Shown: positions 15,515 to 45,224 of the stretch, piece after piece
Layout: every line of letters begins with the position of its first letter
How positions within the stretch are numbered: position 1 is the stretch's first letter
Source: an uncultured Candidatus Saccharibacteria bacterium
GTDB lineage: Bacteria; Patescibacteriota; Minisyncoccia; Phycocordibacterales; Phycocordibacteraceae
NCBI GenBank assembly: GCA_964507275.1
Contig: CAZDPG010000001.1
Location: forward strand, 20,958 to 84,957
DNA: 64,000 bases
Direction: 5' to 3'
Made by a program: the position numbers and the translations under genes
Notes under the pieces: generated by a model
What the model saw: the letters and a program-made list of their open reading frames with translations, nothing else
The model's database searches: none
What the model was told of the DNA's origin: nothing

Positions 15515-17743
15515 GTGGCCTATGGTATAGTTCTCTCCATCATGCAGAGCGAAGAGGCAGGGAAACGGCCCACTGATACCGCGCGACAGATAGCCCGCTT
15601 CGCGGCACTCGGGGCGCTTTTCCTCATCCCGCTTACGCCACTCATCGTCACGGGCTCGTTCTTCTTCCCCTTCATCACTGGCAAGGCGTTCTTCCTCCGT
15701 ATCCTCATCGAGATAGCCGTATGCGCGTGGGTAGTGCTCGCCCTACTTGATAGGGCCTACCGCCCGCGCCTTTCGATGATTGGTGCGGCGGTCGTCGCCT
15801 TCGTTCTCTGGATGTTCGTCGCCGATGCGTTCGCGCTAAATGCCGCGAAAGCATTCTGGAGTAACTTCGAACGCATGGAGGGGTGGGTTCTTCTCGCCCA
15901 TCTCCTCGGGTTCTTCTTTGCAGCGAGCTCTGTGTTGCGTGTCGAAAAGCGGTGGCGGGCATGGTTCCTCACGTCACTCGGCGTCTCTGCCGTCATAGCC
16001 GCCTATGCCTTCCTGCAGCTCGCTGGTGTATTTGCGATACACCAGGGTTCCACGCGCGCCGATGCTTCGCTCGGCAATTCCGCATATCTCGCGATCTATC
16101 TTCTCTTCAACGCGTGTGTCGCACTCTGGCTCGCGCTTACGGAAAAGCGAGTGTGGCTCACTTGGGCGCTCGGCATCCTTGCCGTACTCGAAGCAATACT
16201 CATTTTCTTCACCGAGACACGCGGCACGATCATAGCGCTCGTCCTCTCGCTCACGCTTGCGGCGGCTCTCACTGCTTTCACTGCAGGGAAGCGGGCACGG
16301 CAGGTAGCTATCGCCGTGCTGGCGCTTGTCATACTCCTTGCTGGCAGTTTCTACGTCGCGCGGAACTCCTCATTCGTGCAGGATAATCACGTGCTGCAGC
16401 GCATCGCCTCCATCTCGCTCGCGGATGGCCAGACGCGCTTCACGATCTGGGGCATGGCATTCGAGGGGGTTCGCGAGCGCCCGCTTATCGGGTGGGGACA
16501 GGAGGGGTTCAATTACATATTCAATAAGTACTATGATCCTTCGCTTCATAGCCAGGAGCCATGGTTCGATCGTGCACACAACGCATTCATCGATTGGCTC
16601 ACGGCTGGCGGCATCCCGGCGTTCCTCCTCTACCTCTCACTCTTCGGAACGGCGTTCCTCATGCTCTGGAGGAGTTCGGAACTCTCACGGCCGGAGCGTA
16701 TCGCGCTCACGGCGGCGCTTGTCGGATATGCCGTGCATAATCTCTTCGTCTTCGACAATCTCTCCTCCTATATATACTTCTTCGCATTACTCGCGCTTAT
16801 CGATTCGCAAGTTGCGCGGGAGGTGGGGCGGATGGAGGAGGCCCCGGTCATGTCTCCTGAGGATGGTGCGACCTATGCACTCCCCATTGCCGCTGCCGCC
16901 GCACTCACCCTCATCTGGTTGGTGAACGTCTCGGGCATGCGCGCCGCAAGTGGGCTCATCGAGGCGCTTTCGCCTGCTCCAGCTGGCATCAGCGCGAATG
17001 TCGCCGCGTTTGAGGCGATTGCCGCGCACCCGTCATTCGCCAAGCAGGAAGTGCGCGAACAGCTGGTGAGCTTCGCTTCGGCGATTGTCCAGAGCTCCTC
17101 TCAGGCGACCATGGATGAGAAACAACGCATCGTATCACTTGCCGTGAGAGAGATGCAGAAGCAGGTTGCAGCGTATCCGCTCGATGCACGTGAGCGTCTC
17201 CAGCTTTCCTATGCGTATCGCACCTCTGGAGACGGCGAGCTAGCGAAGCGAGAAATAGAGGCTGCAGCACGATTGTCTCCTCGGAAGGAGCAGATACTGA
17301 TTGAGAAGGGTTCGATCGAGTGGGATATGGGTGACCTGCAATCCGCTCGGGAAGATTTCAATGCTGCCTACGCGCTCGGGCCGCAATTCCTCGATCTTGC
17401 CGCATATGCGGCAGCCGGGAATATCGCGGCGGGCGATACTGCGGCATCCGATACAATCCTGCTCGCCGCATACGGCACGACGACGGTCGACAGCGATATT
17501 CTCGCTTTCGCGTACTATCAGGCCAAGAGCTGGCAGCGACTTATCGATATATGGAAACTGCGCACAACTCGCCCCGAGCGGGGGGCACAAGCATGGTTCG
17601 GTCTCGCTGCTGCGTACTATGCCGCTGGCGATTCGACGAGCGCGGTGAAGACAATCACCGAGGCGGTCAAGCGATACCCGGAAACGGCAGCGTCCGGTGC
17701 CTCAGCAATCACCCAGATACGTGAGGGTGCGGCTGGCAAATGA
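15515..17743 (+). CDS. O-antigen ligase (Wzy_C)-domain membrane protein with C-terminal TPR repeats
   Basis: Polytopic N-terminal half with 'ETRGTIIALVLSL' and 'WGMAFEGVRERPLIGWGQEGFN' O-antigen-ligase-like loops; Ala-rich TPR-like C-terminus; 4-nt overlap with murB. Confidence 0.6.
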   Translation: MAYGIVLSIMQSEEAGKRPTDTARQIARFAALGALFLIPLTPLIVTGSFFFPFITGKAFFLRILIEIAVCAWVVLALLDRAYRPRLSMIGAAVVAFVLWMFVADAFALNAAKAFWSNFERMEGWVLLAHLLGFFFAASSVLRVEKRWRAWFLTSLGVSAVIAAYAFLQLAGVFAIHQGSTRADASLGNSAYLAIYLLFNACVALWLALTEKRVWLTWALGILAVLEAILIFFTETRGTIIALVLSLTLAAALTAFTAGKRARQVAIAVLALVILLAGSFYVARNSSFVQDNHVLQRIASISLADGQTRFTIWGMAFEGVRERPLIGWGQEGFNYIFNKYYDPSLHSQEPWFDRAHNAFIDWLTAGGIPAFLLYLSLFGTAFLMLWRSSELSRPERIALTAALVGYAVHNLFVFDNLSSYIYFFALLALIDSQVAREVGRMEEAPVMSPEDGATYALPIAAAAALTLIWLVNVSGMRAASGLIEALSPAPAGISANVAAFEAIAAHPSFAKQEVREQLVSFASAIVQSSSQATMDEKQRIVSLAVREMQKQVAAYPLDARERLQLSYAYRTSGDGELAKREIEAAARLSPRKEQILIEKGSIEWDMGDLQSAREDFNAAYALGPQFLDLAAYAAAGNIAAGDTAASDTILLAAYGTTTVDSDILAFAYYQAKSWQRLIDIWKLRTTRPERGAQAWFGLAAAYYAAGDSTSAVKTITEAVKRYPETAASGASAITQIREGAAGK

Positions 17744-18756
17744 CACACGAGTTCAAGGAACAAGTCTCGCTCGCCTCATTCACGACATTTCATATCGGCG
17801 GTCCGGCGCGTCTCCTCGCCGAGATTCATACGGAAGAAGACCTGAAGACCTCGTTCGCGCTTGCGCGTGAACGCGGTCTTCCTCCGTTTGTGCTTGGTGC
17901 GGGGAGCAACGTGCTCGTGCCCGACGATGGCGTCGAGGGACTCGTCATTCGCATGCTCATCGACGGTATCTCATGTGAAGATCCCGAGCTGCTTGTCGCG
18001 GGCGCGGGCGCGCTCTGGGATGACGTGGTGGATGCCGCCGCCGCGCGAGAAATGTATGGCATCGAGAATCTTGCCGGCATCCCTGGTACACTCGGCGGCG
18101 CCGTCGTGCAGAACATCGGTGCGTACGGCGCGGAGCTGAAAGAGGTATTCGAATATGCCGACGCAATCGATAGTACGACCGGGGAGTCGCGGCGCATTCG
18201 GCGTGATGAAGCGACATTTGCATACCGCACGAGTCTATTCAAGGAACATCGGGAGCTCGTCATTACGAGAGTTGCGCTCCGGTTGAAGAGGCATTCCCTG
18301 CCGAACGTCGCGTACGCTGATCTTGCTCGTGCTCGGGAACTCGGCACGCCGCTTGCGACGCCGCACGAGATAGCACGTGCCGTGCGGAACATACGCGCTC
18401 TGAAATTTCCAGATAGCGCCCTTGAAGGGTCGGCAGGTTCGTTCTTTAAGAACCCGGTTATCTCGTCTGCACAGACAGAAGCGCTTCAGAAGCGCTTCCC
18501 GGGAGTACCGCTCTTCCTGCAGGGAGACGGACGGACGAAAGTATCGCTTGCGTGGCTCCTTGATCATGTGCTTTCGCTCAAGGGATATACAGAAGGCGCC
18601 GTGCGTTGCTACGAGAAGCAGCCGCTCGTCATCGTCGCTCGCTCCGGCGCGACCGCGCGCGAGGTGCACGCATTTGCGGATAGCATCGCTCTTCGCGTAC
18701 TCACTGAGGTCGGCATCGCGATTGAAAGGGAAGTGGAATCGTTTGGGACGAGATAA
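17740..18756 (+). CDS. murB: UDP-N-acetylmuramate dehydrogenase
   Basis: 'FTTFHIGGPARLL...VLGAGSNVLV' FAD-binding N-terminus and 'GSAGSFFKNP' substrate-domain motif. Confidence 0.85.
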   Translation: MTHEFKEQVSLASFTTFHIGGPARLLAEIHTEEDLKTSFALARERGLPPFVLGAGSNVLVPDDGVEGLVIRMLIDGISCEDPELLVAGAGALWDDVVDAAAAREMYGIENLAGIPGTLGGAVVQNIGAYGAELKEVFEYADAIDSTTGESRRIRRDEATFAYRTSLFKEHRELVITRVALRLKRHSLPNVAYADLARARELGTPLATPHEIARAVRNIRALKFPDSALEGSAGSFFKNPVISSAQTEALQKRFPGVPLFLQGDGRTKVSLAWLLDHVLSLKGYTEGAVRCYEKQPLVIVARSGATAREVHAFADSIALRVLTEVGIAIEREVESFGTR

Positions 18757-18795
18757 AATATTCTTACGAAAATTTTTTCGTAAGAATATTTTTTG
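18757..18795 (+). terminator. perfect 17-bp-arm palindrome plus T-run (terminator after murB)
   Basis: 'aatattcttacgaaaa|ttttttcgtaagaatatt' followed by 'ttttg'. Confidence 0.5.
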
Positions 18796-18804
18796 AAAGT
18801 TATC

Positions 18805-18895
18805 CACACATGAAAATTTTTTCGCACACAAAATATTTTTTACGCGCAATAATATCTTGTAGAAACGTTTGTGCATGAAAATTTTTTCAAGCGCG
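18805..18895 (+). promoter_or_regulatory. repeated 'atgaaaattttttc' A/T-rich motif (three related copies) upstream of small basic-protein ORF
   Basis: 'catgaaaattttttcgcacac' and 'gcatgaaaattttttcaagcg' about 60 nt apart, plus a related copy inside the upstream palindrome. Confidence 0.35.
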
Positions 18896-18938
18896 AACGG
18901 GTCGACTTATAAGTCATCATTTCTAATTCACAACCACC

Positions 18939-19034
18939 ATGGCCGCAAAGAAAAGAAAGGCAGTGAAGAAGACTGCAAAGAAGGCAGTCAAGAAAGTCGC
19001 GAAGAAGCGCAAAGCCGCTAAGAAGCGTTCCTAG
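18939..19034 (+). CDS. small lysine-rich basic protein (31 aa, histone H1-like / KAAKK-repeat)
   Basis: ATG..TAG ORF 'MAAKKRKAVKKTAKKAVKKVAKKRKAAKKRS', below the ORF-track size cutoff; own upstream motif and downstream hairpin. Confidence 0.45.
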   Translation: MAAKKRKAVKKTAKKAVKKVAKKRKAAKKRS

Positions 19035-19044
19035 TTTCAAAAAA

Positions 19045-19090
19045 GAAAGACACCGTTTGCCGAAAGGCGAGCGGTGTTTTTCTTTTTAGA
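19045..19090 (+). terminator. putative rho-independent terminator
   Basis: 'gacaccg...cggtgtc'-type stem followed by 'tttttctttttag'. Confidence 0.4.
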
Positions 19091-19123
19091 CTGAAATGAG
19101 TCGTCATGGTATAGTGCAGTGTC

Positions 19124-21646
19124 ATGTTCAGTCTCTCTTCGTTATTCTCAAAGAACCAATCCGCGGCCTTCTTGAAGGCCGCGGCACCGGTCGTCGTAAA
19201 GACGAATGGTTTTGCCGCCGAGCTCGTGGCTCTTTCGGATGATGAACTCAGAGTGCGCATCGCTGAGCTGCGCGCCCGCGCGACGGCTGCCGGCGCGACG
19301 GCGAAAGACGACATTCCGCTCGTGTTTGCCCTTGTACGAGAAGCCTCTCGCCGCACGCTTCGCCAGCCGCATTTCGATGTGCAGATGATGGGAGGTCTTG
19401 CGCTACTCGAAGGGAAGATCGCCGAGATGCGCACGGGTGAAGGAAAGACGCTCGTTGCGACTCTGCCGACGACCTTTCACGCGCTTTCCGGTCGCGGCGT
19501 GCATGTCGTTACGGTGAACGACTATCTTGCTCGTCGTGACGGTGCATGGATGGGACAGGTGTATGCCTTCCTCGGACTCTCAGTTGGCGTTGTGACGAGC
19601 ACGGGAGCATACCTCTATGACGCGTCGCATGTCGCTCAGGAGGAGGATGCCGAGCGCGATGCTGCGGGCTCGTTTAAAGTGTTCTACGACTATCTGCGCC
19701 CTGCGACGAAGAAGGAAGCGTATGCTTCCGACATCACCTATGTTACGAACAATGAGCTCGGTTTCGACTATTTGCGCGACAACACCGCCTATGACGCCGC
19801 ACAAATCATGCAGCGCGGGCACCACTATGCGGTCATCGACGAAGTGGACTCCATCCTTATCGACGAGGCGCGCACGCCGCTCATCATCAGCGGCCCGGCT
19901 GGTGATTCGCAGAAGCTCTACGAGCGTTTCTCGGGCATCGTCAGGTCGCTTGAGGAGGGCCGAGACTATACTATCGACGAGAAGCAGAAAGCAATTCAGC
20001 TCACGGAAGAGGGTATCCGCTCTGCCGAGGTCGCGCTTGATCTCGAGAACCTCTATGCCGAGGGTGGGATGAAATACGCGCACCACCTAGAGACGGCTGT
20101 GCGGGCGCAGGCGCTTTTCCATAAAGACAAGGATTACATCGTACGCGACAACGAGATCATCATCGTCGATGAGTTCACAGGACGGCTCCAGCCGGGACGT
20201 CGCTGGTCAGATGGCCTGCATCAGGCTATTGAGGCAAAGGAAGGAGTCCTGGTACGGGAAGAGACGCGGACCTACGCGACGGTCACGTTCCAGAATCTTT
20301 TCCGTATGTATGAGCGGCTCGCGGGTATGACCGGGACGGCGCTTTCTTCTGAGGAGGAATTTTATACGGTGTATGGGCTCGAGGTCGTCGTCGTGCCGAC
20401 CAATAAGTCGGTCGCGCGCAAGGATTTCGATGATCTCATCTTCCAGACTGCCGCAGGGAAGTACCGCGCGGTCGCCCGAGCAGTGAAGGAGCGGCACGAG
20501 AAAGGCCAGCCGGTTCTCGTTGGTACGGTTTCCATCGAAGACAATGAAATAGTCAGTCGCTACCTTTCTGAAGAGGGTGTGCCGCATGAGGTGTTGAATG
20601 CGAAGAATCACGAACGCGAGGGGGAGATTATCGCTGGTGCAGGCGAAGAGGGTCGCGTGACCGTGGCCACGAACCTTGCAGGACGCGGTGTCGATATTAA
20701 GCTCGGCGGTGCGTTCGCGGACGCCGAGTCGCGTGCAGCAGTCCTCGAGAGGGGCGGTCTCGCTGTCATCGGTACGGAGCGGCATGATGCCCGCCGTATT
20801 GATAACCAGCTACGTGGGCGATCCGGTCGTCAGGGCGATCCGGGTGAGACGCGTTTCTATGTGTCGCTTGAGGACAAACTGATGCGTGTCTTTGCCTCAG
20901 AGACCTTGAAAAAAGTGATGGGCCGTTTTGGTATTCCTGAGGATGAGCCGATAGAGAGTGCGATGATTACAAAGTCGCTTGAGACCGCACAGGGACGCAT
21001 CGAAGGGTTCAACTTCGACGCTCGAAAGCAGGTGCTTGCGTATGACGACGTGATGAATACGCAGCGCCTTGCTGTTTATGCGCGCCGCCGCGCCGCCCTC
21101 CAGGGGACGGATTCTGAGATGGAAGCACTCATCCGCGGTCTTCTCGAAGGATCTGATGACGCTCTTCAGGCGTTCGAGGCAAAGAAGGTTGAGTTCGGAG
21201 ATTCTTTCGTGCCGCACCTGCGCCGCCTCCTTCTGCAGGTCATAGACGTGTTCTGGCTCGAGCATCTTGAGACTATGGACTATCTTCGTCATTCGGTATC
21301 GCTCCGGGCATACGGTCAGCGTGACCCGCTTATCGAGTATCGTCGCGAAGGCCTCATTCGTTTCCGCGCACTTGAGGCAAATATCAAAGCATCGGTTACG
21401 GAGATGCTCCCGCGGCTCGAAGGAGGAGACGATGAACGCCGTCGACGCGAAGAGGAGGCGACGCGCGCGCAGTTGGTGGCCGCAGGGCGAGAAGAAGAAA
21501 GTTCTCCTTCGCCAGTTAAGAAAGCTATTGGATACGGGCGCAACGATATTGTCGTTATCAAGAAGGGCGATGAGACGAAAGAGCTTAAATATAAGAAAGC
21601 CGAACCATTTCTTGCAGAAGGCTGGGAGATTGTGAGCCGGGATTGA
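19124..21646 (+). CDS. secA: preprotein translocase subunit SecA
   Basis: DEAD-motor motifs ('GEGKTLVATLP', 'DEVDSILIDEARTPLIISG', 'TNLAGRGVDIKLGG') over 840 aa; extended -10 'tggtatagt' 8 nt upstream of ATG. Confidence 0.95.
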   Translation: MFSLSSLFSKNQSAAFLKAAAPVVVKTNGFAAELVALSDDELRVRIAELRARATAAGATAKDDIPLVFALVREASRRTLRQPHFDVQMMGGLALLEGKIAEMRTGEGKTLVATLPTTFHALSGRGVHVVTVNDYLARRDGAWMGQVYAFLGLSVGVVTSTGAYLYDASHVAQEEDAERDAAGSFKVFYDYLRPATKKEAYASDITYVTNNELGFDYLRDNTAYDAAQIMQRGHHYAVIDEVDSILIDEARTPLIISGPAGDSQKLYERFSGIVRSLEEGRDYTIDEKQKAIQLTEEGIRSAEVALDLENLYAEGGMKYAHHLETAVRAQALFHKDKDYIVRDNEIIIVDEFTGRLQPGRRWSDGLHQAIEAKEGVLVREETRTYATVTFQNLFRMYERLAGMTGTALSSEEEFYTVYGLEVVVVPTNKSVARKDFDDLIFQTAAGKYRAVARAVKERHEKGQPVLVGTVSIEDNEIVSRYLSEEGVPHEVLNAKNHEREGEIIAGAGEEGRVTVATNLAGRGVDIKLGGAFADAESRAAVLERGGLAVIGTERHDARRIDNQLRGRSGRQGDPGETRFYVSLEDKLMRVFASETLKKVMGRFGIPEDEPIESAMITKSLETAQGRIEGFNFDARKQVLAYDDVMNTQRLAVYARRRAALQGTDSEMEALIRGLLEGSDDALQAFEAKKVEFGDSFVPHLRRLLLQVIDVFWLEHLETMDYLRHSVSLRAYGQRDPLIEYRREGLIRFRALEANIKASVTEMLPRLEGGDDERRRREEEATRAQLVAAGREEESSPSPVKKAIGYGRNDIVVIKKGDETKELKYKKAEPFLAEGWEIVSRD

Positions 21647-21776
21647 TGATCGAGCATTCTTGTTTTAGTACGATAGCAAAACTGCGAATATGCTAGATAA
21701 ACACGCAATCTGTCAGGTTTTTGCTTTTGAAGCACTATGAGTGTATGATAATATCATACTAAATCATAGTACTTAT

Positions 21777-21986
21777 ATGTCTACTCTCTCTGTTCCACTT
21801 ACTCCCAAGCTTGAAGAGTTTATCAATCAGCAAGTGAAGAGCGGCCGCGCCGCCAACAAGGCTGATGTTGTCCGTCGTGCTCTCATCGCGATGACAGAAG
21901 AAGAGGCTGTTCAGGAGGTGCTTAACGCATCACGGGAACCCCTCATGCGAGGAGATCTTCAAGAGTTGATGAAGAAGCTCCGATAA
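21777..21986 (+). CDS. type II antitoxin, ParD/CopG ribbon-helix-helix family
   Basis: 'LSVPLTPKLEEFINQQVKSGRAANKADVVRRALIAM' matches the ParD antitoxin pattern; directly upstream of a RelE/ParE-like ORF. Confidence 0.6.
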   Translation: MSTLSVPLTPKLEEFINQQVKSGRAANKADVVRRALIAMTEEEAVQEVLNASREPLMRGDLQELMKKLR

Positions 21987-22003: not shown

Positions 22004-22264
22004 ATGCTCACTATCTCCTTCAAACCCTCGTTTCTTAGAAAAATGAACCGGCTTGATGCTGACCTTCGAGAAGAGGCTATAGAGAAAATAAATCTTCTCA
22101 AAGACATCAAGAATCATCGGCTTCTAAGGGTTCATAAATTGCACGGACCGCTTTCGGACTGGTTCAGTTTCTCGGTCAATTATAAAGCGCGAATTGTATT
22201 TGAATATGTTTCTAAAACAGAGGTCGCCCTCCTCTCTATCGGCGATCACGATGTGTATAACTGA
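22004..22264 (+). CDS. type II toxin, RelE/ParE family
   Basis: 86 aa, 'HKLHGPLSDWFSFSVNYKARIVFEYV...EVALLSIGDHDVY' RelE/ParE-fold pattern; forms a pair with the upstream RHH ORF. Confidence 0.6.
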   Translation: MLTISFKPSFLRKMNRLDADLREEAIEKINLLKDIKNHRLLRVHKLHGPLSDWFSFSVNYKARIVFEYVSKTEVALLSIGDHDVYN

Positions 22265-25785: not shown

Positions 25786-26396
25786 CGTATATATTCGATT
25801 TCTTGTCTCGGATATCCGAGCTAATGATATAGAGATAAAAACTGATTACAGAGAACACTATCGCAAGATAAGGTATACATTTATATAGCTTGGTTGCTAC
25901 AAGGGTCCTCATAAGAGTCCCTCGCATAGATCGATACTCATCCATGAGCATGGGAAGAATAGATTTACCTGTGATAAATAAGATTTATCACATATATGAG
26001 CATCAGACGGCTATACATACTTATATATAGGTATGTATAGCTAGGCATCTGGTATACGGAATAAGTATATGTATCCTATGTAGTTCGTATATCCGGAGCG
26101 ATATACATGCGTGCTTCTGCATATATAGTAAAGTTCGTTTTTGCACGATATTTTTTGCATCGAATGGATGAAGATCATGATTTTAACACCGATGATCTTT
26201 CTTAATGCGGTTTTAACGGCAAATCCCACATAATTTTCTGCTGTCAGAGGTGATACATTCGGCGAAATTTTTTGCATTTCGTTGTAAATGAAAAATGAGA
26301 TTAGTTGTGCGTCGTGATGTGTGATAATTATCCACACCATTTTCGTAGGGAGTGCCGAAATAGTAAGTTATTATTTAGTTAATTCGGCTATCCGAC
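25786..26396 (+). promoter_or_regulatory. AT-rich 0.6-kb leader with multiple perfect palindromes upstream of the giant gene
   Basis: Palindromes at 25807-25820 (ctcggatatccgag), 25971-25991 (gtgataaat aag atttatcac), 26010-26041 (gctatacatac ttatatata gtatgtatagc), 26171-26199 (aagatcat...atgatctt); visibly lower GC than flanks. Confidence 0.45.
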
Positions 26397-29300
26397 ATGA
26401 ATCACTCCCTCAAAGAAAATTTAATAACGACGAAGGATGCGAGTGAGCTTTCAGGATACACTTCAGACTATCTTGCGCGTCTTGTTCGATCGGGAGAAAT
26501 ACAGGGAAAGAGAATTGGACATAGTTGGGTCATCAGCAGTGCGTCGCTCGAGACCTTCATGACCAAACAGAAAGGTCGTAAGCTCGATCGAGCGCGTGAG
26601 CTCGCGAGCTCACGCGTGCGCGAATACAATAGGCACAATCAGTTCGTGCAGCGTACGACGCGTGCGTTGACAGAAAAGATTTCAGTACCGAAATTCAGAC
26701 TTGAGGAGATTTCGATTCGCTCACATTCGCTCGCGCTTGGAGTGGCGCTCGTAGTTGTTGCACTAGGTGCTGTTGGCGCAAATGCCGCAGCTCTGCCGCA
26801 AGTCGCGCAACGAGCATCAGCACTCGCCACAGAAATTTCTTCAGGCTTCGTCGACACGTTCGGTGATGTTCCGACACGCATCGCTGTGCGCATGGAAGAG
26901 GCACGCATCGCTGTGCGAGCAGATGCGACACGAAATGCACTTGCGTCTCGTCGCGCAGGATATGTTGCGTCACCAGTTCTCGCATCGATTGATCTCGAAA
27001 CTTTGCGAACAGTACTTGTGAAAGAATATCGCGCACCGCGCGCGACATCTGACATTGCATTCTCGTCGTCGCGCACTGACGCACCGATCCTGACTGTCAC
27101 CGATGTGTACGCATCAGTTGCCGGTGCGTATGAATTCTTCGCGAATCCCTCAAACATCGGCACGACTCTTACCGATGCGTACTTTGCGATCGGTACTGAT
27201 GCGTACGCAGCAGTCGATGCATCATTCTCCGCCTACCGTACTCTCATTGATGCCTCAGGGACACCGATGCTCGCAGCCGCTGCGACGACGCGCGATGCAC
27301 TCGCGCACATGCCGCGTCTTGTCGCTCAAGTGAACTTAGCACTCGGCGAGGCAGTTATAAAAGCGACACATGCGGCAATACGCACTGACGTGATTGCCGC
27401 GCATGGTCTTGCTGCCGCTGCTCCGGAGAGCGCCCGTATCGCCGTCACACTGATGGGTTCTACAGGCGATACTCTCGCTCGCGCCGCAGAGCAAGTGCCT
27501 GCACGCGTCGCCACCGCGTATTTGAACGCGACGGCGGTACCGGCAGTACTCGCTCCTCGACTCGCGCAGGCCGTGTTCAACGCGGAATACTCCATAGCTG
27601 ACCGCTTCGTTTCTGTTACGAACGTCGCAAGCGAGCGCTACTTAGCGCTTGTCGAAGGGACGGGAGATATCGCGTATGAGAGCTCCACGAACGCCCGTTC
27701 GATAGTCCAGTCAGCTTCGCGCACGATTGCTTTCGCTCCTGCTGCTCTTGAGGACGTTACGCTCGGAACGCTTGGCAAGAGTGCCGCAGCCCTCGATTCG
27801 GTGACGCATCTCTCATCATTCGCAGCCGTGCTGCCGGCGCTCTCTGCGAGCGAGAAGACGGCACTCGCGGTCTATGAGGCGATACACTCAGCCTTCGACT
27901 CTGCGAATAGGACGCTCGTCGCATTCTTCACTACTACGCCGGAGACGGTGCTCCCGACCGGCGTGCCGAAGGCGCGCGTCATTGCTGTCGCAACATCGAC
28001 CCGTGCGGTCTCTTCCGGGACGCAGCCGGTAACCACTCTTTCGTATCCGACGTACACGACCGTGGTACGCGGCGTATCGGAAGACTTCGTGAATCAGTCG
28101 CTCGCATCGCTTCGCACGAATGTACTTGCGACGGTCGCGGGCATGATACAGCCGGTCAGCAGCCAGGTCGTCCAGAACATCACGACAATCCAGCAGTTGA
28201 ACCGGATCGACAGTCTGCATGACCTCGTAGTGCAGAATGGCGACTTCCGCAACAGCATATTCGACAATGGCATTAGAGTGAACGCGCGCGATGGCTATTT
28301 CGATAACCTTACTGCTGGTACGACGACGCTCGCTACCACCACGGTCAATGGCACTCTTACGATAAGCTCGCTCACGCTCACAGGCTCCCTCTCGAGTCCG
28401 GGCTCTATCACTGGTAGCTACTTCGTCTCGACGAGCACGAATGCTACCTCGACGTTCGCAGGATCGATCAACATCGATAACGCTGGCTTCGTCTATGCGA
28501 CATCGACACGCAACGTCGGTATCGGCGTGCTCTCTCCCGCTGCGCTCATCGCCGTGCAGAACAGCACGTCGACGCAGCCGATATTCGTGGCAAGCAATGC
28601 CGCCGGAGCGGAAGTATATCGCCTTACGAATGACGGATTCGTCGGTATCGGCACGACATCGCCTACCTACAATCTCGCTGTCGAGGGCTCATCGACGCTT
28701 GGTAATCAAGCGATTGCTGGATACTTCACTGCGACTACGACAACAGCTACCTCGACATTCGCTGGCTCGTTCACCGTCGGTACGGACAAACTGGTCGTCA
28801 ATTCGACGACCGGGAACATCGGTATCGGGACGACGAGTCCGTATCAGAGGCTCTCGGTGGCGGGGAATGTCATCGCGGACACGTTTATCGCCACCTCGAC
28901 CACAGCCACCTCGACATTCGCCGGTGGGTTCGCTGTAGAGACGGACGGTCTAGTCTATGACTACTCGTCAAATAATGTTGGTATCGGGACGGCGTCGCCC
29001 GCGAACGCAAAGTTAGATATTCGTGAAAGTGCTTCTGGGGCGTACGGCATAAAGTTGACGAACAGGAACGCCACTCGGACATGGGGGATTGCTACTGATG
29101 TTGGTGCCGTTAACGACAACAAATTCGGGATATTTGATGTCACGAGCGGAGGAGCTCGGCTGACTATTGATACGAGTGGTTATGTTGGTATCGGCTCGAC
29201 GAGCCCGGCACAGAAACTTGTCGTGAGCGGAAATATCCTTACGGACAACGCTAATAACAATCTTAGTGCGTATAACATAATCAATCGCCCTACGAACGCG

Positions 29301-32300
29301 ACGTATGATGCGGCGAATTGGTATCAAACCGCTGGAGTAAGCAAATGGATTGCTGGGTTGCTAGCAGCATCTTCCGGCGGCACGGCGAATGCGGATGACT
29401 ATTCGATCGCTTACTACAATGGCTCCTGGAATAACGCAGTTACGATTAACAGTTCTGGTCGCGTTGGCATCGGCACCACCAGCCCTTCCGGAACCCTCGC
29501 AGTCGCTGGCGACTTCTTCCTCACCGGTTCCACCACCATTACGGGCGCCGACTCCGGTATCGTCTTCACCGGCTCCGGCAACCACGACATCACCGCCGCC
29601 GGTGGTACGCTCCGCATCGGGACCAATACCATCATCGGCAACATCGAGGCGCTCAACGATACGGTGGATATCGGTACCGCCATTACCCGCTTCGACAAAA
29701 TATACGCAAACGAGGTCAACGCCTCCACTATCGTCGGTACGCTCACAGGCGGCAATCTCAGTGCCGAGACCTTCACCATCAACTCCGACAACGCCACAGC
29801 AGACACGGAGAATGCCTATCTCGTCTTCGAGCGAGGCACGATCACTCCGAACGCGTCCCTCGCCTGGAATGCTGCTGAGGGCGCGAAGCGCTTCGAATTC
29901 AATCATCCGCTGTTCATACAGAACGCTTCTGCCTCGACGACGCTCACCACGCTCGATCTCAAGGCCGTCGCCGGGCAGACTGCCGATATTTTCCGCGTAG
30001 CTTCCTCATCGGCGGATACTCTCTTCAATGTTACGGCCTCTGGCAACGTCGGCATTGGCACCACCTCTCCGTATCAGAAGCTCTCGGTAGTAGGGAATGT
30101 CATCGCAGACACATTCATTGCGACATCGACCACAGCCACTTCGACGTTCGCGGGCGGGTTCGCTGTAGAGACGAGTGGCCTGGTCTACGACTACTCCTCA
30201 AATAACGTCGGTATCGGGACAGCGGGCCCGAGCAAGAAGTTATCAGTAGCCGGAGATGTGCTCATCGGAACTCCAAGTGGCAGCAGTGACGTAAGGTTGC
30301 TGGTAGGTCGCGCGGATGGTGTGGGAGACGGCATCGTAACGGCCACAAACTTCAATGCTGTGACAGTACCAGTATTTCGTGCCAGGTCTGGAACTAGTCC
30401 AACAGGAGATGGAATATATTTATTCTACGGTCAAAATGTAGCCAATACGAAAACATTCAGTGTCGATAATTCAGGAAATGGTTATTTTGCTGGCAACGTC
30501 GGCATTGGCACGACGAGTCCGACCACATTGCTTTCGTTATCGCAAACCACCGGTCCAATCATCACATTAGAAAATAGAAACACCGCCCTCGCTGCGGGTG
30601 AGCAAATCGGCGGGTTGAGCTTCACTGCGAATGATTCGAGTGGTGGTGGTACAGGTGAAATGGCAAAGCTGATTGCCTACACGCAAGCCATATCCAGTGC
30701 ATTTGGGAATCTCGGATTCTATACAAGAGATCGAGTCGGCGTTGACTCTCTGAGTGAGAAGATGACGATTCAGTACAACGGGAATGTCGGCATCGGCACC
30801 ACCTCTCCATATCAGAAACTCTCGGTGGCAGGGAATATCATTGCGGACACATTCATCGCAACATCGACCACGGCGACCTCAACATTTGCCGGTGGGTTCG
30901 CCGTCGAGACGAGCGGTCTGGTCTACGACTACTCGTCAAATAATGTCGGCATCGGGACGGCGGGGCCTGAATCGAAACTCTCTGTTTTACGGTCACCCTC
31001 CGATATATTGGGAGAAACCTCGATAGGATTGAATTACGGCGCGGGAGATCTATGGGGGATGAGACTAGGTTCAACTGATAGCTACGATTTCCATCTTGAT
31101 AGGAAATCTGGTAGCACGTGGCTTCAAGCACTATCCATCGATAGAACATCCGGCAACGTCGGCATTGGCTCTACGAGTCCGATGAGTAAACTGAGCGTGG
31201 TGGGCGAATCAAGAATCACCGGTGTCGATTCCACATTTGGTGCTGATGCGAATGCGAGAACATCTCTGCATATCAATGCAAATACCGGGTCTCTTGCCGA
31301 AGTAGCATATGAATCTGCGGGTTCGTTGAGGTGGAAAGTTGGTAAGAATTCCACAACCGAATCGGGATCGAATGTGGGATCAGATTTCTACTTCAATCGC
31401 AGAAGCGACACAGGGACTGATTTGGGTACAGCGATGTTGATTCAGCGTTCTACGGGCAACGTCGGCATCGGGACCACGAGTCCAGCCAGCAAGCTTAATA
31501 TATATGCTGGAGCATCTGGCGGTGGGGCGAATACAAGCGCCCCACTAACAGTCGAAAGCAATACAACGGCGTTTATCGGACTGCTCACCCCAAATGCTTC
31601 CGCAAGTGGCATTCTTTTCGGAAATGTCTCAAACAATGCCGCTGGCGGGATTCTCTATAACTCAGAAGTCGCGAATGGTCTTTCGTTCCGTGTGAATGGG
31701 AATAGTGTGAAGATGGTTATCAATTCATCTGGAAATGTCGGCATTGGGACGACTACCCCGATTGCTCCGTTGTCTGTTTTATCCGCATCATCTGCCGATC
31801 AGTCCCTAGCTCAATCCTGGAGTTATAACTCTGGTGCCGATTTGTATAATCTCAAACTGAAGCAAATAGTAACCTCAGGGGTTGTAAAGTGGGGTTTTGA
31901 TATACAGAATGCAGGCACTTCGTATTCCGATGTCCTGATACTTGATCGTGGCAATGTCGGTATCGGGACGACAAATCCGCAGAAGATGCTAGACGTATCG
32001 ACATCTACTGACGCCACGCTCCGGCTGACCTCCACCAAGAATGACTCGAGCTGGACCAGTAATACGGATACCGCGGGTGTCCTTGAGTTCTATAAGACCG
32101 ATGCTTCGGGGGGAGGCGCCGATGTCGTAGCAAGCATCAAGCCGATTGTGCAGAATACTGCAGGTAGCGAATGGGATCTCGGCTTCTCAGTCGGGGAGAC
32201 GCTCGCCGAGCAGTTCAGAATAAGCGATGCCGGATATCTTGAGAGTCCAACAACGGCGAAGTTCATCTTCAACGACGTGTCTGGAGGAGTTCTTCAGCTC

Positions 32301-35300
32301 AGACGGGAGGATCTCACCGTGGCAAGCGGAGAGACGATCGGCGAGCTCGATTTCTTGGGGACTGACGCTTCGACAAACATGGCAGGAAATCTTGCGAAGA
32401 TCCTGGTGGCGGCGGAAGCAGACCAGTCAACAAGCGCTGCGACCTATATGGCCTTCCATACTAATACCGGGAATGCCGGTTCACTTGCAGAGGCTATGCG
32501 CATCTCGAGTACCGGTAACGTCGGCATCGGCGTAACGGCACCTGCCATCAGATTATCAATAAAGGATTCTTCATCCCAGACTGCCTACACAACATCGAGT
32601 TCTGCGGCCGCAAACCCCTTCGTGGTGCAGACGACTGAGGTCGCGAGCGGCTCCGGCTATGCCGCTCTGCAACGGTTTTATGGAGGTCTTGGGAATAGCA
32701 TCTGGTATCAGGGCCTCGTCGATAATGGGGTTGCCTTTGGTGGCTCCTACGTTATCGGGAACAGGACTGGTGCGGCCGCGTATCAGGAACAACTGAGGAT
32801 CACCAGTACCGGGAACGTCGGTATCGGGACATCGACACCGAATACGAAATTGAACGTACTCGGTAGCAGTGGAACTCAATATTCAAACTCTATTGCAAAG
32901 TTTTACGCGGCCGCTACACAGGGTGTATATATTGGGTACAACACAACCGATAAATACGGATATATTGGGGCGGTTACGGAAGGAGTAACGCACGATCCTC
33001 TGGTCTTAGAACCATCTGGAGGCAACGTCGGCATCGGCACCACGAGTCCGGCAGATATCTTAGATATCTATTCCGCCGCTACTAATAGAGTCTTCCTTCA
33101 AGCGAGTACATCAGTTGGATACGCAGAATATGGTCTGTCGGCGGACCAAGGGAGGGGTAGTCGTTCGACCTTAATCCAGTATGGTTCAGCCCATGCGACA
33201 CTACCGAATGCTTTACAGCTTTTGAATTTTAATAATGCCGATTTAGCACTTGGGACAAATAATACTCGGAGGGTGACAATTTCCGGTAGCGGTCTTGTGG
33301 GTATCGGGACGACGACACCAGCGGCGAGGTTAGTGGTTTCAGAAACAATTTCACAAACGGCGATATTCGATAGCACTTCAGCGTCAGGTCCATACATAGC
33401 ATTCTCTTTAAATGGTACAAGGAATGGATACTTGGGGAATGGCGGCGCACTTGGAAACTCTGCTTCAGTCATTACACTTAGAAGTGAGGGAGATCTTGCC
33501 CTTAATACTGGTACTACCCCTCGACTGTACGTCACGAACACAGGTAACGTCGGTATCGGTACGTCGACGCCAGAGAGACTGTTGCAAGTTCATGGGACTA
33601 ACACGGAAGTGGAGTTGTCTTCAGGGGCTGATGAGTATGCTCGGCTGTATTTCAGGAATGGGGATGGAACTGGAGAAGCAGGCAGGAAGTGGTTGATGGG
33701 GCAGTACGGTGGTTCAGCAGGAAATCCTTTCGTGTTTACATATGCCGCTTCCACAGGAAGTAACTGGGTGGATGCTCTTGCAATAACCAACACGGGGAAT
33801 GTCGGCATCGGAACGACGAGTCCAGGTGTTAATTTGGTCGTCGCTGGGTCAGGACACGTATATAGCAGAGTCGATACAACAGGGACATCCCATGTCGCCG
33901 GCTCCTATCTCACGACTCCGACAACCGAATTGGACTTCATGAGCTTCGGCGGGTACAGCACTTCCCGATTCAGTACTTCCACAGTGGGGTACAGCGCCGC
34001 ATATGCGGTAACTGGCGGCTTGATGTTAGGGACGTATGGTGCTTCCGATGTGATTATCGGTTCAAACAATACTGACAGGATCCACATACTCAGCACAGGT
34101 AACGTGGGTATCGGAACAACGAGTCCTGCTGGGACATTGCAGCTCGGCGGTTCCGCCCCTCATTTCCTTATCGGTACTGGTGCGGATGTCTTGGCAGGTG
34201 GACAGGCTGGCCTTTTGATTAGCAATGGAACAGAAAAAGTTATAAGTGGCGTACAGTCGTCTCTTGGCTTTATTGGCACATATTCAAATACGAAATTCGG
34301 CTTGGCCACCAACAACTCTACGAAAGTCACGATAGATACGACTGGCTACGTCGGCATCGGTACCACAAGTCCAGCGGATACTTTGGATGTGAATGGTGGC
34401 GTGAGAGTCATGGGCCAGGGAACGCTTGGTTTCGGAGCCGGAATGGAATTTTCATATAATTCCACGACGGGAGGCGGCATAACGACTTACGACAGAACAG
34501 GGTCGGCATTCAAAGATTTGAACGCGAATGCTCTCAGTTATCATTTCCTAACAAGTAGTGCTGAAAAGGTAACCATATTAAATAGTGGCAACGTCGGTAT
34601 TGGTACGTCGAGCCCGGGGAATTTGTTGCAACTGCATAGTGCAAGCAGTAATCCGGGGGTTTGGATGTCTGGCGGAACAATAACACAACCGTTTACTAGT
34701 GTTGGGTTCACACCGGAAATTAACGCCAATGTAAGTGGAACTTGGGGTCAATCAAATGCTACTTATGGAGGTCTGCAAGTAAATTCTTTTACGACAAATG
34801 GTAATGCAAACACGATAGGGTTGACGTTACAGGGACATATCGGGTCAGCGTCTCCTTCTGATGACGCACCAGCTATTGTTATAGCTGGCTGGAAGAGTAA
34901 CGGTAGTACAGGCCGTTCGGCGATGTCAGGGACGAACACTGTGTTACAAGTGAGAGCTGGGTCAACGAATTTGGTCACAGTTCAAGGTTCCGGCAACGTC
35001 GGCATCGGCACGACAACACCTGCAACCGCTCTTCAGATAAATACATCTTCACTAGAAGTGGCGCGTTTGGTGGGGACGAATGCAACAGGCGGATATCTAT
35101 CATTCTTTGGGAACACGTCCACAGTGTCTGGCTTCCTCGGAAGTGATGGTGCGGTGAGCGGTGGAGGAGGGGCAAGCGTGTCTGACTTCGGGTTCAGAAC
35201 ACCAGGGGGTATGGTATTCAGGACAGGAGGCGCGGCGGCGCGCATGACGATATTAAGTACCGGTTATGTCGGCGTCGGGACGACCACTCCTACGGCAGCG

Positions 35301-38300
35301 CTCCACGTGAACGGAGGAGATATGCACTTCGGAGACAGTACCAATGTTGCGCGCAACTTCTACGCAATCCGGAATGCTGTCGCTGTGGGAGGCTTCTCGA
35401 CCTCTAACAGCGTCTTCTCTTTGTTCGGAGGTGCGGTGGCAACACCCATGCTCACTCTTATCGGATCCGGCAATGTGGGTATCGGAACAGCGGCACCGGC
35501 AGCGATGCTCGAGATTGCCACGACCACGACCGATGGTGCGACACTTCGTCTCACGAACTCCGACACCGCGGTTGCCGCTGGGGAGGCTCTCGGTTCCTTG
35601 GACTTCTATTCGTCTGATGCTTCGACAAGTGGGGCGGGCATCAGGGCATACCTGAAAGCAGTGGAAAATGATGGAGGAGTCGGCCGCTCCTATGATTTGG
35701 CGCTTGGTACTGGTGCGGCAGCGGCAGCAACCGAGAAGCTGCGCATCACGAGCAGTGGCAACGTCGGTATTGGGACGACGACGCCTGGTGCAAAACTGCA
35801 AATAGGAAGCAGTTCGGTCACCCCTGTGGCTTCCGCGACGCCAGACGCTATCTCGCTGGGTAATATGTACAGCACAACCGCCGGGAGCAACCTAAAACTA
35901 AAGGTGTATGAGTCGGGAAGTGTCAGTCTCGGTTTGGGGGTGAGCGCTCTCTCTCTTGATGTTGTGGCAGGACAGACAGGTGCAGGTATTAACTTCTACA
36001 CTAACGCCGGAAGTACGGCGAAGATGACTATCAGTTCGACTGGCAACGTCGGCATCGGCTCAACGACGCCAGGAAGCTTGCTAAGCGTACTTAATTCGGC
36101 GTTAACGACATACGCTACCAGTGTTATTTCCTCAAGCGTTTCCTCTCTCGAGACGGTGAACAGCAGCAATGTAAGCGGGCAAACTTCAACCCTCAAACTC
36201 AGGGCAAGCAGCAATGGCGGTACGGTTGCAGGCATTGCCGGAATAAGCGCTGTTCAGACAGACTGGACGGCCAATTCTGCTGACATCGCGTTTCAGACGA
36301 ATAGCCTGGGTGCTATCGGTGAGAGAATGAGAATAACAGCGGCCGGTAATGTGGGCATCGGCTCCTCTACTCCTGTTAGCAAATTATCAGTGGCAGGGAC
36401 AGGTGACATCACGGCTGAAATTCAGACGACCTCTAGTACAAATGCAGCAGGTATTAAACTCACTGGCGGTACTCAGACCTGGGGTGTCTATTCCATAGGA
36501 AGTTCTGGTGTTAAAAGCGGAGCTCTTGGCTTCTATGATCACGGGTCATCAGCATGGAGACTTCTTCTTGATAATGCAGGCAACGTCGGCATAGGGACGA
36601 CGAGCCCGCTCCATATGCTGAGTGTGACAAACCCTTCTGGGTCGGGGACAAACTTGTATGTCGCTCAGTTCGCGTCTAACGCGGGAGCAAATGTTCCGCT
36701 CGTAGCCTATTCTGACTCGGCAGGTTCGGCTATTGTAAACCAAACGGGCAGCCTGACTGGTGCGGAGTATATATATATGAGCCAGGCCGGCAACATGACC
36801 TTCAATACTGCGGGTTCTGAGCAAATGAGGATCACGAGTACCGGCAACATCGGCATCGGCACGACGACGCCATCTGCAAAACTGCATATCCTCGATACCA
36901 CGAGTGTGTCTACGAGCGGACAAACCGCATTGGTCGTAGGCTCGACCTATAGCGCAGGCACGGTCGGGAGCGGCGGCAAGATATTGTTTGAAGATCAATC
37001 GACCGGCACTGATAGTGCTGCGATTAGAGGCTACACCTTTGGGTCTTCCAAGACTGGTCTGGCCTTTGATACCGGGTGGGGCGCCCTCACAACGAAGATG
37101 GTGATAGATAATTCGGGCAACATCGGCATCGGCACCACCTCGCCATACAGCAGACTCTCGGTCTGGGGCGCAGACACGACAGCGGGTGTGAATATGTTTG
37201 AGCTCACCAACTCCGCTTCGACGACGCTCCTCTCTATGGATAACGCGGGGAACTTGAACGTGCCGGTCGCCACCGCGACGACGACGCTCGGCGGGGGATT
37301 AAACGTGAACTCGGGCGGTCTCGTTTATGACCTCACTACGGGAATCACGTCTGCCGCTAACTTGAGTCTCGGCGCGACGACCTTCGATACGGATGCGGGA
37401 GTGGTGCAGTGGGTGGATATGCCGGTCACCTCCGCTTCTGCCTCTGGCACCGTCGAGAGCTACACGGCCTCGCTCAACGCGAACCCGATGCTCACCGTCT
37501 ACGGTCTTGCTGATGGCATAGGCGGCATGACGAATCTCGGCGTGGGTATCGGCTCAACGAGTCCGTGGGCAACGCTCTCGGTGACCACTGCGGCTCAGCA
37601 GTCGGGCCTCTTGCCGCTCTTCCAGGTCGCTTCGACGACGAATGCAGAACTCTTTACGGTCAATGGGAACGGGAATGTCGGCATCGGCACAACCTCGCCT
37701 GACACGATACTTACTGTTTTCAACTCTGCTGCCGCAAGTGCAAGTGGGGAAAATACCCTGAAGTTGTCTGCGGACTACCATGGAAATGTTATTGGCAGTG
37801 GCGGACGCATGGTGTTCACCAACAATGCCGTGGATTTAGGGAAAGAAGCGGCAGACATACGCGGATATACATTTGGGACCAACCTGACAGGTCTCGCGTT
37901 TGGTACAGGGTATGGAGCGGTCACTACAAAGATGGTTATAGACAATGCGGGGCTTGTCGGCATCGGCACCACCTCGCCATTCGCTAAACTCGCTGTTCAA
38001 GCGACCGCTGGTGGCTCGACCCCTCTCTTCACGATCGCATCATCGACGAGTGGCGCGGCCACCTCGACGGCGTTCCATGTCGCAAGTAATGGAAATGTGG
38101 GTATTGGGACAGCAAGTCCGGGGGCGAATCTTGAAACTTTCGGAGGAATTAATGCTCTCCCTACGGCATCTGGTTCTGTAAATGAAGCGGGTATTAGAGT
38201 TAGAGGTGGGGGAAATGTTGTGAGTCTTGATTTCGGTAGTAAGAGTGCTGGCCCAGCTTCTTCATGGATTCAGTCAAGAAACGCGACTGATTATTCTACA

Positions 38301-44735: not shown

Positions 44736-45185
44736 ATGGAAAAAGATTTTGACGGATGGAATGAAGTAAAGAAGCAGGCGCACGAAAACAAAATGTCGCA
44801 TGAATCTTTTCCGAAAGAGAGGGAAGTCTGGTGGTGTTCTGTTGGCGTAAATGTAGGAGTAGAAACAGACGGGAAGAATGACACTTTCGAACGTCCGATT
44901 TTGATTGTGCGTATTTTTAATAAAGAAATGCTTTGGGCGGTCCCAATCACTTCAACGGTAAAAGATTCACCATTTTACTATCCTTTCTTATTCAAAAATG
45001 AAGATCGCTCGGTGATACTGACACAACTTCGTGTGATGAGTACGAAGCGATTGCGACGGCGGGTTGATGTGATGTCAGAAGAAGACTTTAAGAATGTGAT
45101 TGAAGCACTTGGAAATCTGCTAAAAGCGAAACCCCTCCACAAGGGAGAGGTTTCTCGGAGGCCGAAGCCACTAATAAAGCCATGA
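44736..45185 (+). CDS. PemK/MazF-family toxin-like protein (solitary 'DFDxWNExKK' subfamily)
   Basis: 'EKDFDGWNEVKK...EREVWWCSVGVNVGVETDGKNDTFERPILIVRIFNKEMLWAVPITS' matches the MazF/PemK SH3-barrel pattern; start at MEKDFD with AAGG 8 nt upstream. Confidence 0.55.
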   Translation: MEKDFDGWNEVKKQAHENKMSHESFPKEREVWWCSVGVNVGVETDGKNDTFERPILIVRIFNKEMLWAVPITSTVKDSPFYYPFLFKNEDRSVILTQLRVMSTKRLRRRVDVMSEEDFKNVIEALGNLLKAKPLHKGEVSRRPKPLIKP

Positions 45186-45224
45186 TACTCCCTCAGAACA
45201 AAAAGTCAATGCAGGTGTGGATAA

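Follow-up and report, generated by a model that had tools for sequence, protein, structure and literature searches.

Several kinds of small basic protein provide a background for the gene described here, a lysine-rich open reading frame (ORF) of 31 codons that lies between murB and secA in a 64,000-nucleotide (nt) stretch of DNA from an uncultured Candidatus Saccharibacteria bacterium (assembly GCA_964507275.1, contig CAZDPG010000001.1, positions 20,958 to 84,957), hereafter called the window. The C-terminal domain of eukaryotic histone H1 and the protamines are charge neutralisers that are disordered, or helical when bound. In bacteria, Hc2/HctB of Chlamydia (PF07382, NF038052), Hc1, and BpH1 of Burkholderia and Bordetella (NF038053) are believed to condense DNA, to which they would bind through their charge, and variation in length through repeat number is typical of such H1-like proteins, not of ribosomal proteins. 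ScvA is a peptide of about 30 amino acids (aa) that is rich in Arg and Gln and specific to one developmental stage. Both ScvA and Hq1 are small basic DNA-binding peptides of Coxiella burnetii, a bacterium with a condensed nucleoid (PMC4766238). Very small basic proteins are also found in ribosomes; the Borrelia bS22 gene is 93 nt long, was previously unannotated, encodes a helical product with 61% Lys/Arg, and is expected to occur in more bacteria (PMC10618245). Finally, arrest peptides are known whose ORFs precede sec genes (PMC12992588).

How does the present locus compare with these systems? Its product, MAAKKRKAVKKTAKKAVKKVAKKRKAAKKRS, shares with Hc2, Hc1 and BpH1 the low-complexity repeats rich in Lys and Ala (and Pro or Arg) and the variation in length through repeat number, but those proteins have 120–240 aa, whereas members of the window family have 12–114 aa (31 here) and no other domain; the organisms are unrelated, and homology is not demonstrable. 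With the H1 C-terminal domain and the protamines it shares a composition of about 40% Lys and 20–30% Ala, with some Pro, Thr and Val and almost no acidic or aromatic residues; unlike them, it is free-standing and bacterial, has neither a globular domain nor SPKK phosphorylation motifs, and carries KKRKAAKK at its ends. ScvA is likewise very small and basic, but it is not similar in sequence, and its gene lies in another context. The ribosomal proteins bS22, bL37, eL41 and mS38 resemble it in having about 25–33 aa and about 60% Lys/Arg, in being helical, and in having often been overlooked in annotation (PMC10618245); in contrast to the variable window family, which consists purely of K, A, R, T, V and P, they have a fixed length, a more varied sequence and a defined pocket in the ribosomal RNA (rRNA). 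Like SecM and other arrest peptides of sec genes, the ORF is small, immediately precedes secA on the same strand, and is conserved as a pair with it, but it has no signal segment or arrest motif, and a full terminator and a separate secA promoter lie in between. In kind, the peptide belongs with the bacterial H1-like or protamine-like basic proteins.

The reading that we favour, at roughly even chances, is that the ORF is a real small gene with its own transcription and translation, kept throughout the class Paceibacteria, and that its product is a free-standing polycationic peptide that binds nucleic acids and is probably associated with the nucleoid. The most interesting result is the conserved module in which the gene is embedded: a DnaA box, a promoter, a leader with a hairpin and GGUCG, the micro-ORF, a terminator and a leaderless secA. 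The features of the locus are as follows.

17740–18756, + strand: murB (UDP-N-acetylenolpyruvoylglucosamine reductase; Pfam FAD_binding_4 2.7e-21, MurB_C 2.5e-16), the upstream neighbour
18755–18792, + strand: A/T-rich perfect palindrome (18+2+18), arms 100% complementary, at the end of murB
18800–18808, + strand: perfect DnaA-box consensus TTATCCACA, a conserved upstream promoter element
18809–18823, + strand: second repeat copy CATGAAAATTTTTTC, in the T-rich spacer between the DnaA box and the −35 position
18848–18853, + strand: −10 hexamer, AATAAT here and GATAAT in relatives
18866–18899, + strand: leader hairpin of the minimum-free-energy fold, with the GAAAATTTTTTC copy at 18877–18888 as its apex
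18900–18906, + strand: leader motif GGTCGAC (core GGUCG), directly 3′ of the hairpin
18939–19034, + strand: the small gene, 31 codons plus TAG, product MAAKKRKAVKKTAKKAVKKVAKKRKAAKKRS, between murB and secA
19037–19090, + strand: intrinsic terminator, comprising an A-run, a G+C-rich hairpin (arms 19037–19061 and 19066–19090) and a T-run
19107–19115, + strand: extended −10 element of secA (TGGTATAGT; promoter scan TAGACT-17-TATAGT with TG), ending 8 nt before the secA ATG
19124–21646, + strand: secA (Pfam SecA_DEAD 5e-110 and other SecA domains), the downstream neighbour in nearly all loci

A conserved lysine-rich gene upstream of secA

An earlier note on this DNA had reported a lysine-rich ORF of 31 aa between murB and secA. 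We found the ORF at 18939–19034 with the translation MAAKKRKAVKKTAKKAVKKVAKKRKAAKKRS, in which 17 of the 31 residues are Lys or Arg and acidic residues are absent, as are aromatic residues and Leu. By the relatives of its SecA, the window belongs to Candidatus Kaiserbacteria/Paceibacterota, within the Candidate Phyla Radiation (CPR)/Patescibacteria. We searched the region ahead of secA in 47 Patescibacteria loci, chosen through secA, and a complete Lys/Arg/Ala-rich ORF was present in 42 of them; in one more (L004), such an ORF is cut by the end of the contig. Each locus of about 10 kb holds just one ORF of this kind. The orthologues range from 12 aa (MAKKRKAAKKRK, L013) to 114 aa (L027), those of the Kaiserbacteria clade from 12 to 69 aa. 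In most of the 42 loci, the ORF ends 61–156 nt before the ATG of secA on the same strand, and this tight adjacency is kept in about 38, even where the upstream gene differs. Among the exceptions, the ORF of L010 is 931 nt from secA after an insertion, and that of L039 lies on the opposite strand. No such ORF was found in 32 secA loci (301 kb) from phyla other than Patescibacteria.

Because this first sample had been selected through secA, we drew a second one through the promoter pattern instead. A metagenome scan for AAGTTATCCACA-N36-44-GATAAT yielded 120 loci, of which 41 contain a K-rich ORF (15–71 aa; 40 distinct sequences) located 56–188 nt past the −10 hexamer. Where at least 500 nt of sequence followed such an ORF, secA was found within 400 nt on the same strand in 31 of 32 cases. 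In L172 (about 180–700 after orientation), the box, the −10 hexamer and a K-rich ORF, MAKKKAKKAKKSKKRKGRR, are present and secA is not the next gene; by eye, the next gene resembles a pyruvoyl-dependent arginine decarboxylase of polyamine synthesis. The gene upstream of the small ORF is murB in most close relatives and not in many distant ones, where we observed genes for a hydrolase, an oxidoreductase, a transposase, ribosomal protein uL5 or a ribonucleotide reductase. Since the upstream gene varies, the pairing with secA is the constant feature of the locus. Across about 80 related loci, the ORF, its start and stop, the promoter region and the terminator have been kept, which supports the earlier proposal of a dedicated, separately regulated and functional mini-gene.

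The pattern of nucleotide change is that of a coding sequence. In ten loci with the identical N terminus MAKKRKAAKK, the third codon position differs in eight of the ten codons, the first position differs once (a synonymous CGN/AGA change) and the second never; variation is thus placed on third positions, which indicates that the frame is under selection at the protein level. All loci have an ATG-GCN start and a stop directly after the basic stretch, and the differences in length consist of whole KKxx-type repeat units between the conserved ends MA(A)KKRKAAKK ... KRKAAKKR(R). The antisense frame that shares these third positions is also open in all loci (it is rich in Phe, Ala, Arg and Leu, with about 11% Arg), so that the third-position pattern alone would fit either strand. 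That frame has no Met and no conserved start. We prefer the plus strand because it alone has a conserved start and stop, and because three further elements have this orientation, namely the promoter, the leader hairpin with its G-U pairs and the terminator with its T-run.

Codon usage in the family is also distinctive. GCA and GCT make up 86% of its Ala codons, compared with 44% in the other genes of the window, and AAG makes up 73% of its Lys codons, compared with 60%; this bias would fit selection that favours either efficient translation or an mRNA free of structure. The stop codon (19032–19034 in the window) is TAG in 24 of the 26 Kaiserbacteria-clade loci (L002–L024 stops), compared with 22% of the other genes of the window, and synonymous sites near this TAG vary within the clade. 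We consider that the ORF is very probably a real, translated gene.

The earlier description of the ORF as unannotated holds only in part. Gene calling at the Joint Genome Institute had already predicted this 31-aa gene on contig Ga0103682_10000175, without assignment to a Pfam or NCBIfam family. The peptide matched nothing in Pfam (E ≤ 1) or NCBIfam (E ≤ 10), and a sequence search of the PDB chains (E ≤ 10) was equally empty. An alignment of 28 family sequences gave no significant match in a collection of 5.8 billion proteins, a HMMER scan of 1.84 billion representative proteins gave no match to the family, and the exact sequences of the window peptide and nine orthologues were all absent from a 15-billion-protein collection. 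Literature searches on Patescibacteria or CPR brought up no relevant paper in combination with small lysine-rich or H1-like proteins, with leaderless mRNAs or with the use of Shine-Dalgarno sequences, and those on hibernation factors in Patescibacteria returned nothing bearing on this peptide. The gene is described in no paper that we found by literature search and by no family model.

Downstream of secA, two small genes were observed that follow one another on the plus strand, one for a ParD-like antitoxin directly after secA (81 aa, 21741–21986) and one for a HigB/RelE-like toxin (86 aa, 22004–22264), each with a weak Pfam match.

Promoter, structured leader and terminator

The 180-nt spacer upstream of the ORF, aligned across 26 close loci, is conserved in blocks along its whole length, and one of these blocks, AAAGTTATCCACAC, includes the exact DnaA-box consensus. 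In 36 of the 42 loci, the exact box TTATCCACA lies 106–170 nt upstream of the ATG on the same strand; these include the most distant loci and the inverted L039, and a further 3 of the 42 have TTTTCCACA in place of the box. The hexamer [C/G]ATAAT is invariant 48–50 nt past the start of the box in both close and distant lineages, and the consensus thus holds a fixed position relative to the promoter, 48–50 nt ahead of the −10 element. In distant lineages, TTGnnn is found 16–18 nt upstream of the −10 hexamer, at the −35 position. A simple consensus promoter scanner did not report the AATAAT at 18848–18853. Transcription would start near 18860. Overall, 43 TTATCCACA boxes occur in 434 kb, compared with about 3.3 expected, and the 12-mer AAGTTATCCACA also retrieves oriC-like clusters of DnaA boxes in other bacteria. 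We considered a replication origin in this spacer and rejected it, because there is a single DnaA box, the cumulative GC skew increases monotonically across the site, and the flanking genes are co-oriented. A second promoter, TCGACA with TCTAAT, was also rejected, because its spacing is just 14–15 nt and GGTCG lies within the transcribed structured leader.

Downstream of the promoter, the leader forms a hairpin that is strongly supported by comparison. Over 25 sequences and 10 base pairs, 94.6% of the cells are paired, and 8 of the 10 pairs show compensatory changes; none of 500 shuffles was as good, and registers slid along the alignment gave 23–58% pairing. Its many G-U pairs indicate an RNA structure of the plus strand and not a DNA operator. 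A covariance model built from the close loci found exactly one copy per related locus, always at the leader, including in four metagenome loci that had not been used as seeds, and no other copy within the 64-kb window. The sequence GGGTCGAC is invariant in the 26 close loci, and 77 of 82 leaders contain GGTCG, which in every case comes just past the hairpin and is often inside an outer stem. A crude test for such an outer stem around GGUCG was weakly positive (at least 4 pairs in 43% of leaders, compared with 23% in shuffles). In Rfam 15, nothing matched near the gathering score within 18600–19250, and no family, tRNA families included, reached it across the 64 kb. The small ORF has no Shine-Dalgarno sequence; a motif resembling one precedes just 5 of the 36 long ORFs of the window, and the missing sequence is normal for this genome.

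A hairpin and T-run after the ORF had been noted earlier, and both are present at 19037–19090. The arms of this terminator are 25 nt each, and the region containing it folds at −38.7 kcal/mol. An equivalent hairpin and T-run, divergent in sequence, follow the ORF in every related locus examined. In most of the related loci, TGnTAnAnT is found 7–9 nt before the ATG of secA. As the extended −10 element in the window ends 8 nt before this ATG, the secA mRNA is predicted to be leaderless, and because the terminator of the small ORF is followed by secA's own −10, secA would be a separate, leaderless transcription unit. Extended −10 elements 7–9 nt before an ATG were also observed at other starts in the window, e.g., at 12560 (−), 13335 (−) and 56624 (+), and this placement points to leaderless mRNAs for several genes.

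The spacer also contains the repeats and the palindrome on which the earlier note had built its promoter region. The perfect palindrome exists, but it is 38 nt long, not 34, and it is part of the end of murB, not of the promoter: its first two bases are also the last two of the murB stop codon. As RNA, it folds at −19.3 kcal/mol (z = −4.9). A palindrome of different sequence occupies the same site in five relatives (L005, L036, L002, L006 and L007), and its function is probably that of a terminator hairpin of murB. The two repeat copies said to lie about 60 nt apart were found as CATGAAAATTTTTTC at 18809–18823 and 18874–18888, a distance of 65 nt, but their 12-mer core, GAAAATTTTTTC, has a third copy. 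The three copies of the core, at 18768–18779, 18812 and 18877–18888, are the only ones in the 64 kb, where 0.27 would be expected and where three were reached in none of 100 shuffles. One is at the apex of the palindrome that ends murB, one in the spacer that separates the box from the −35 position, and one at the apex of the leader hairpin. Relatives have other A/T-rich sequences at these three positions; that of 18809–18823 is T-rich in all of them, with the sequence itself not kept. We considered the exact GAAAATTTTTTC as a conserved operator and rejected it, because the sequence is not kept even in the closest relative. Since relatives have other sequences at the same three sites, the exact repeat is specific to this genome and is not the regulatory signal. 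Of the two elements whose conservation in related genomes the note had named as a check, the ORF is thus kept, and the upstream repeat gaaaattttttc is not a conserved motif in its own right; what relatives share upstream of the ORF is the DnaA-box consensus, the GATAAT −10 hexamer and the leader hairpin with GGUCG after it.

Elsewhere in the window, the exact box TTATCCACA was observed just twice, both times between genes. The box at 26328–26336 (+) lies 50 nt before a −10-like hexamer, GTTAAT, upstream of a single giant ORF of 4407 aa (26397–39620, +). The box at 45216–45224 (−) precedes a minus-strand TTGACT-16-TATCAT by 6 nt, and behind this promoter is a short unit (about 45115–45185, −) that ends in a G+C hairpin and a T-run. 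This unit has no match in Rfam and is either a small RNA or an ORF of about 30 codons (MALLVASASEKPLPCGG...). In eight related loci, a second box is found 6.2–7.4 kb downstream of the small ORF. Promoters with a DnaA box may form a small regulon.

Nature of the peptide and rival readings

The composition of 43 family members is 44% K, 24% A, 12% R, 7% T, 4% V and 3% P, with K and R together at 57%; D, E, F, W, Y, C, L, N and Q do not occur at all. Basic residues recur with a period of 4–5, and the peptide is laid out as KKxx repeats flanked by two KKRKAAKK-like ends; in longer orthologues the repeats are PAKK, KRKP or AAPKKK. AlphaFold2 predicted a single helix over residues 2–30 with a confidence score (pLDDT, predicted local distance difference test) of 93, a result of limited value because any peptide of Ala and Lys is predicted to be helical. 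The best orthologue, the 114-aa protein of L027, matched the HC2 model PF07382 with an E value of 4e-4 (20.9 bits, compared with a cut-off of 40 bits), the Burkholderia-type model NF038053 with 0.0015 (18.8 bits, cut-off 80) and NF038052 with 0.02 (15.1 bits, cut-off 135); neither the window peptide nor any orthologue attains membership in these three families. The longer orthologues touch histone H1-like models only, in every case below threshold, and short tandem repeats rich in Lys, Ala and Arg with variable copy number, the trait of Hc2-type proteins, are present. The likeness to histone H1 tails or basic peptides that had been suggested earlier is therefore supported, in that the only family models touched, at sub-threshold scores, are H1-like. 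No ribosomal-protein model of NCBIfam or Pfam (E ≤ 10) matched the peptide or ten orthologues, and the family, with 12–114 aa within one class, does not show the near-constant length expected of the bS22/eL41 class.

How might such a gene work? We propose that it would be transcribed from a sigma-70-type promoter with its −10 element at 18848–18853 and, about 60 nt ahead of the predicted start, one DnaA-box consensus of the high-affinity type. The transcript would begin with a leader of about 80 nt, in which the conserved hairpin is followed by GGUCG, and would end at the strong intrinsic terminator, which would also insulate the leaderless secA promoter just downstream. The product would be a helix-prone polycation of 31 residues (12–114 in relatives) made only of Lys, Ala, Arg, Thr, Val and Pro. 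Most likely, it would bind nucleic acids without sequence specificity and neutralise their charge, in the manner of a free-standing H1 C-terminal tail or a protamine. Nucleoid DNA would be the most probable target, and the DnaA box could possibly couple the supply of the peptide to replication.

Several points weigh against this proposal. A role in the nucleoid leaves the strict, class-wide adjacency to secA unexplained, and a conserved structured leader is more typical of genes for ribosomal proteins or RNA-binding proteins. For a pure counter-ion, the KKRKAAKK motifs at the two termini are more strictly conserved than necessary, and the 12-aa version in L013 seems very short for a protein that organises DNA. 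Database relatives are absent from every search made, and the sub-threshold family matches reflect composition and not demonstrable homology. Moreover, promoter use, translation, nucleic-acid binding and a preference for DNA over RNA are deduced from the DNA, and binding of DnaA to the TTATCCACA box is suggested by identity to the consensus. Both the function of the peptide and the reason for its linkage to secA are what we infer.

Could the peptide instead belong to the ribosome? This is the main rival, and we consider it unlikely: the product would be either a structural protein of the bS22/eL41 type or a hibernation or protection factor in the slot next to secA that hpf occupies elsewhere. 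Its size, basicity and predicted single helix are like those of bS22, and it has the conserved structured 5′ leader that is typical of autoregulated ribosomal-protein genes. In addition, hpf (PF02482, Ribosomal_S30AE) is located directly upstream of secA in a CPR out-group (L063, 3489–3812) and in another bacterium (L055, 3045–3590), as is also the case in Bacillus and Mycobacterium, so that the small ORF occupies a slot held elsewhere by a ribosome factor. The hpf argument is based on two loci, however, and although the slot is the same, with a terminator in between, HPF is an S30AE domain protein of about 100 aa or longer with no relation to the peptide in sequence or fold. The gain and loss of repeats that gives lengths of 12–114 aa is at odds with the fixed lengths of bS22 and eL41; a pure K/A/R composition argues against a fixed rRNA pocket and has none of the Met, His, Leu and Gln that bS22 contains; and neither a ribosomal-protein model nor a PDB chain matched even at E = 10. 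The leader of the L063 hpf gene was observed to have a hairpin followed by GGGTCA. We considered GGTCG as a shared feature of hpf leaders and set it aside as probably due to chance, because L055 has it, L063 has GGGTCA, and three others lack it.

The linkage to secA would be explained by a quite improbable alternative, in which the ORF is a cis-acting, SecM-like leader peptide and a ribosome, positioned by slow translation or termination of the polybasic frame, decides whether the terminator forms and so sets the level of read-through into secA. It draws on the very tight adjacency (31 of 32 and about 38 of 42 loci), on the terminator that always lies between the ORF and secA, and on the stop codon in the Kaiserbacteria clade, which is 5–9 nt from the A-tract of the hairpin and 13–17 nt from its G+C core; it would also explain the near-invariant TAG stop (24 of 26 clade members). 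However, secA has its own extended −10 element past the terminator, and in a read-through RNA its leaderless AUG would be buried; with a strong terminator and a separate secA −10 in all loci, the sequence gives no sign of co-transcription of the SecM type. We rejected an attenuator model because the distance from stop to hairpin is not conserved (12–27 nt in distant lineages) and the fold gave no alternative antiterminator pairing. In the peptide family there is neither an export signal nor a C-terminal arrest motif: no segment is hydrophobic or secretion-sensing, no residue other than Ala and Val is hydrophobic, and no end is Pro-rich or RAPP-like. The conserved protein termini, together with a dedicated promoter and leader, exceed what a spacer ORF would need, and the ORF is 931 nt away from secA in L010, on the other strand in L039, and ahead of another gene in L172. 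Hardly credible, finally, is the view that the plus-strand ORF is not the product, and that the locus makes a purine-rich non-coding RNA or a small hydrophobic peptide from the opposite strand. The antisense frame is indeed open in all loci and rich in Phe, Ala and Leu, and a short mRNA with a strong leader and terminator is like a small RNA. We rejected the antisense peptide, because its frame, with about 11% Arg, has neither a Met nor a conserved start; it is the plus strand to which the promoter, the G-U pairing of the hairpin and the terminator T-run all point. In about 80 loci, the Lys-rich stretch is delimited exactly by ATG and stop, the three-base periodicity of the variation and the four-fold changes at third positions of GCN and CGN are a coding signature, and there is no match to an Rfam family.

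Meaning for the Patescibacteria

The favoured reading of a polycation that binds nucleic acids can be carried further, in a form that we regard as doubtful: a micro-gene found throughout the class would encode a polycation (a 'mini-histone' or protamine that perhaps takes the place of polyamines) under the control of a DnaA box and a new leader RNA, or else a new ribosome-bound or hibernation factor that replaces hpf in an ancestral hpf–secA slot. If either were true, the module of the small ORF and leaderless secA would define this lineage of ultra-small cells.

The cells of CPR/Patescibacteria are among the smallest known, and the organisation of their DNA and ribosomes is little understood. 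A class-wide protein of 12–114 residues that family models do not see and that is not in a collection of 15 billion proteins indicates that standard pipelines lose small-protein biology. Should the peptide prove to be a ribosome factor, or the main counter-ion of the DNA, it would provide a simple, synthesisable experimental handle for organisms that are mostly uncultured. The conserved DnaA box that is not part of an origin, the new leader RNA motif and the leaderless secA are entry points into gene regulation in CPR bacteria.

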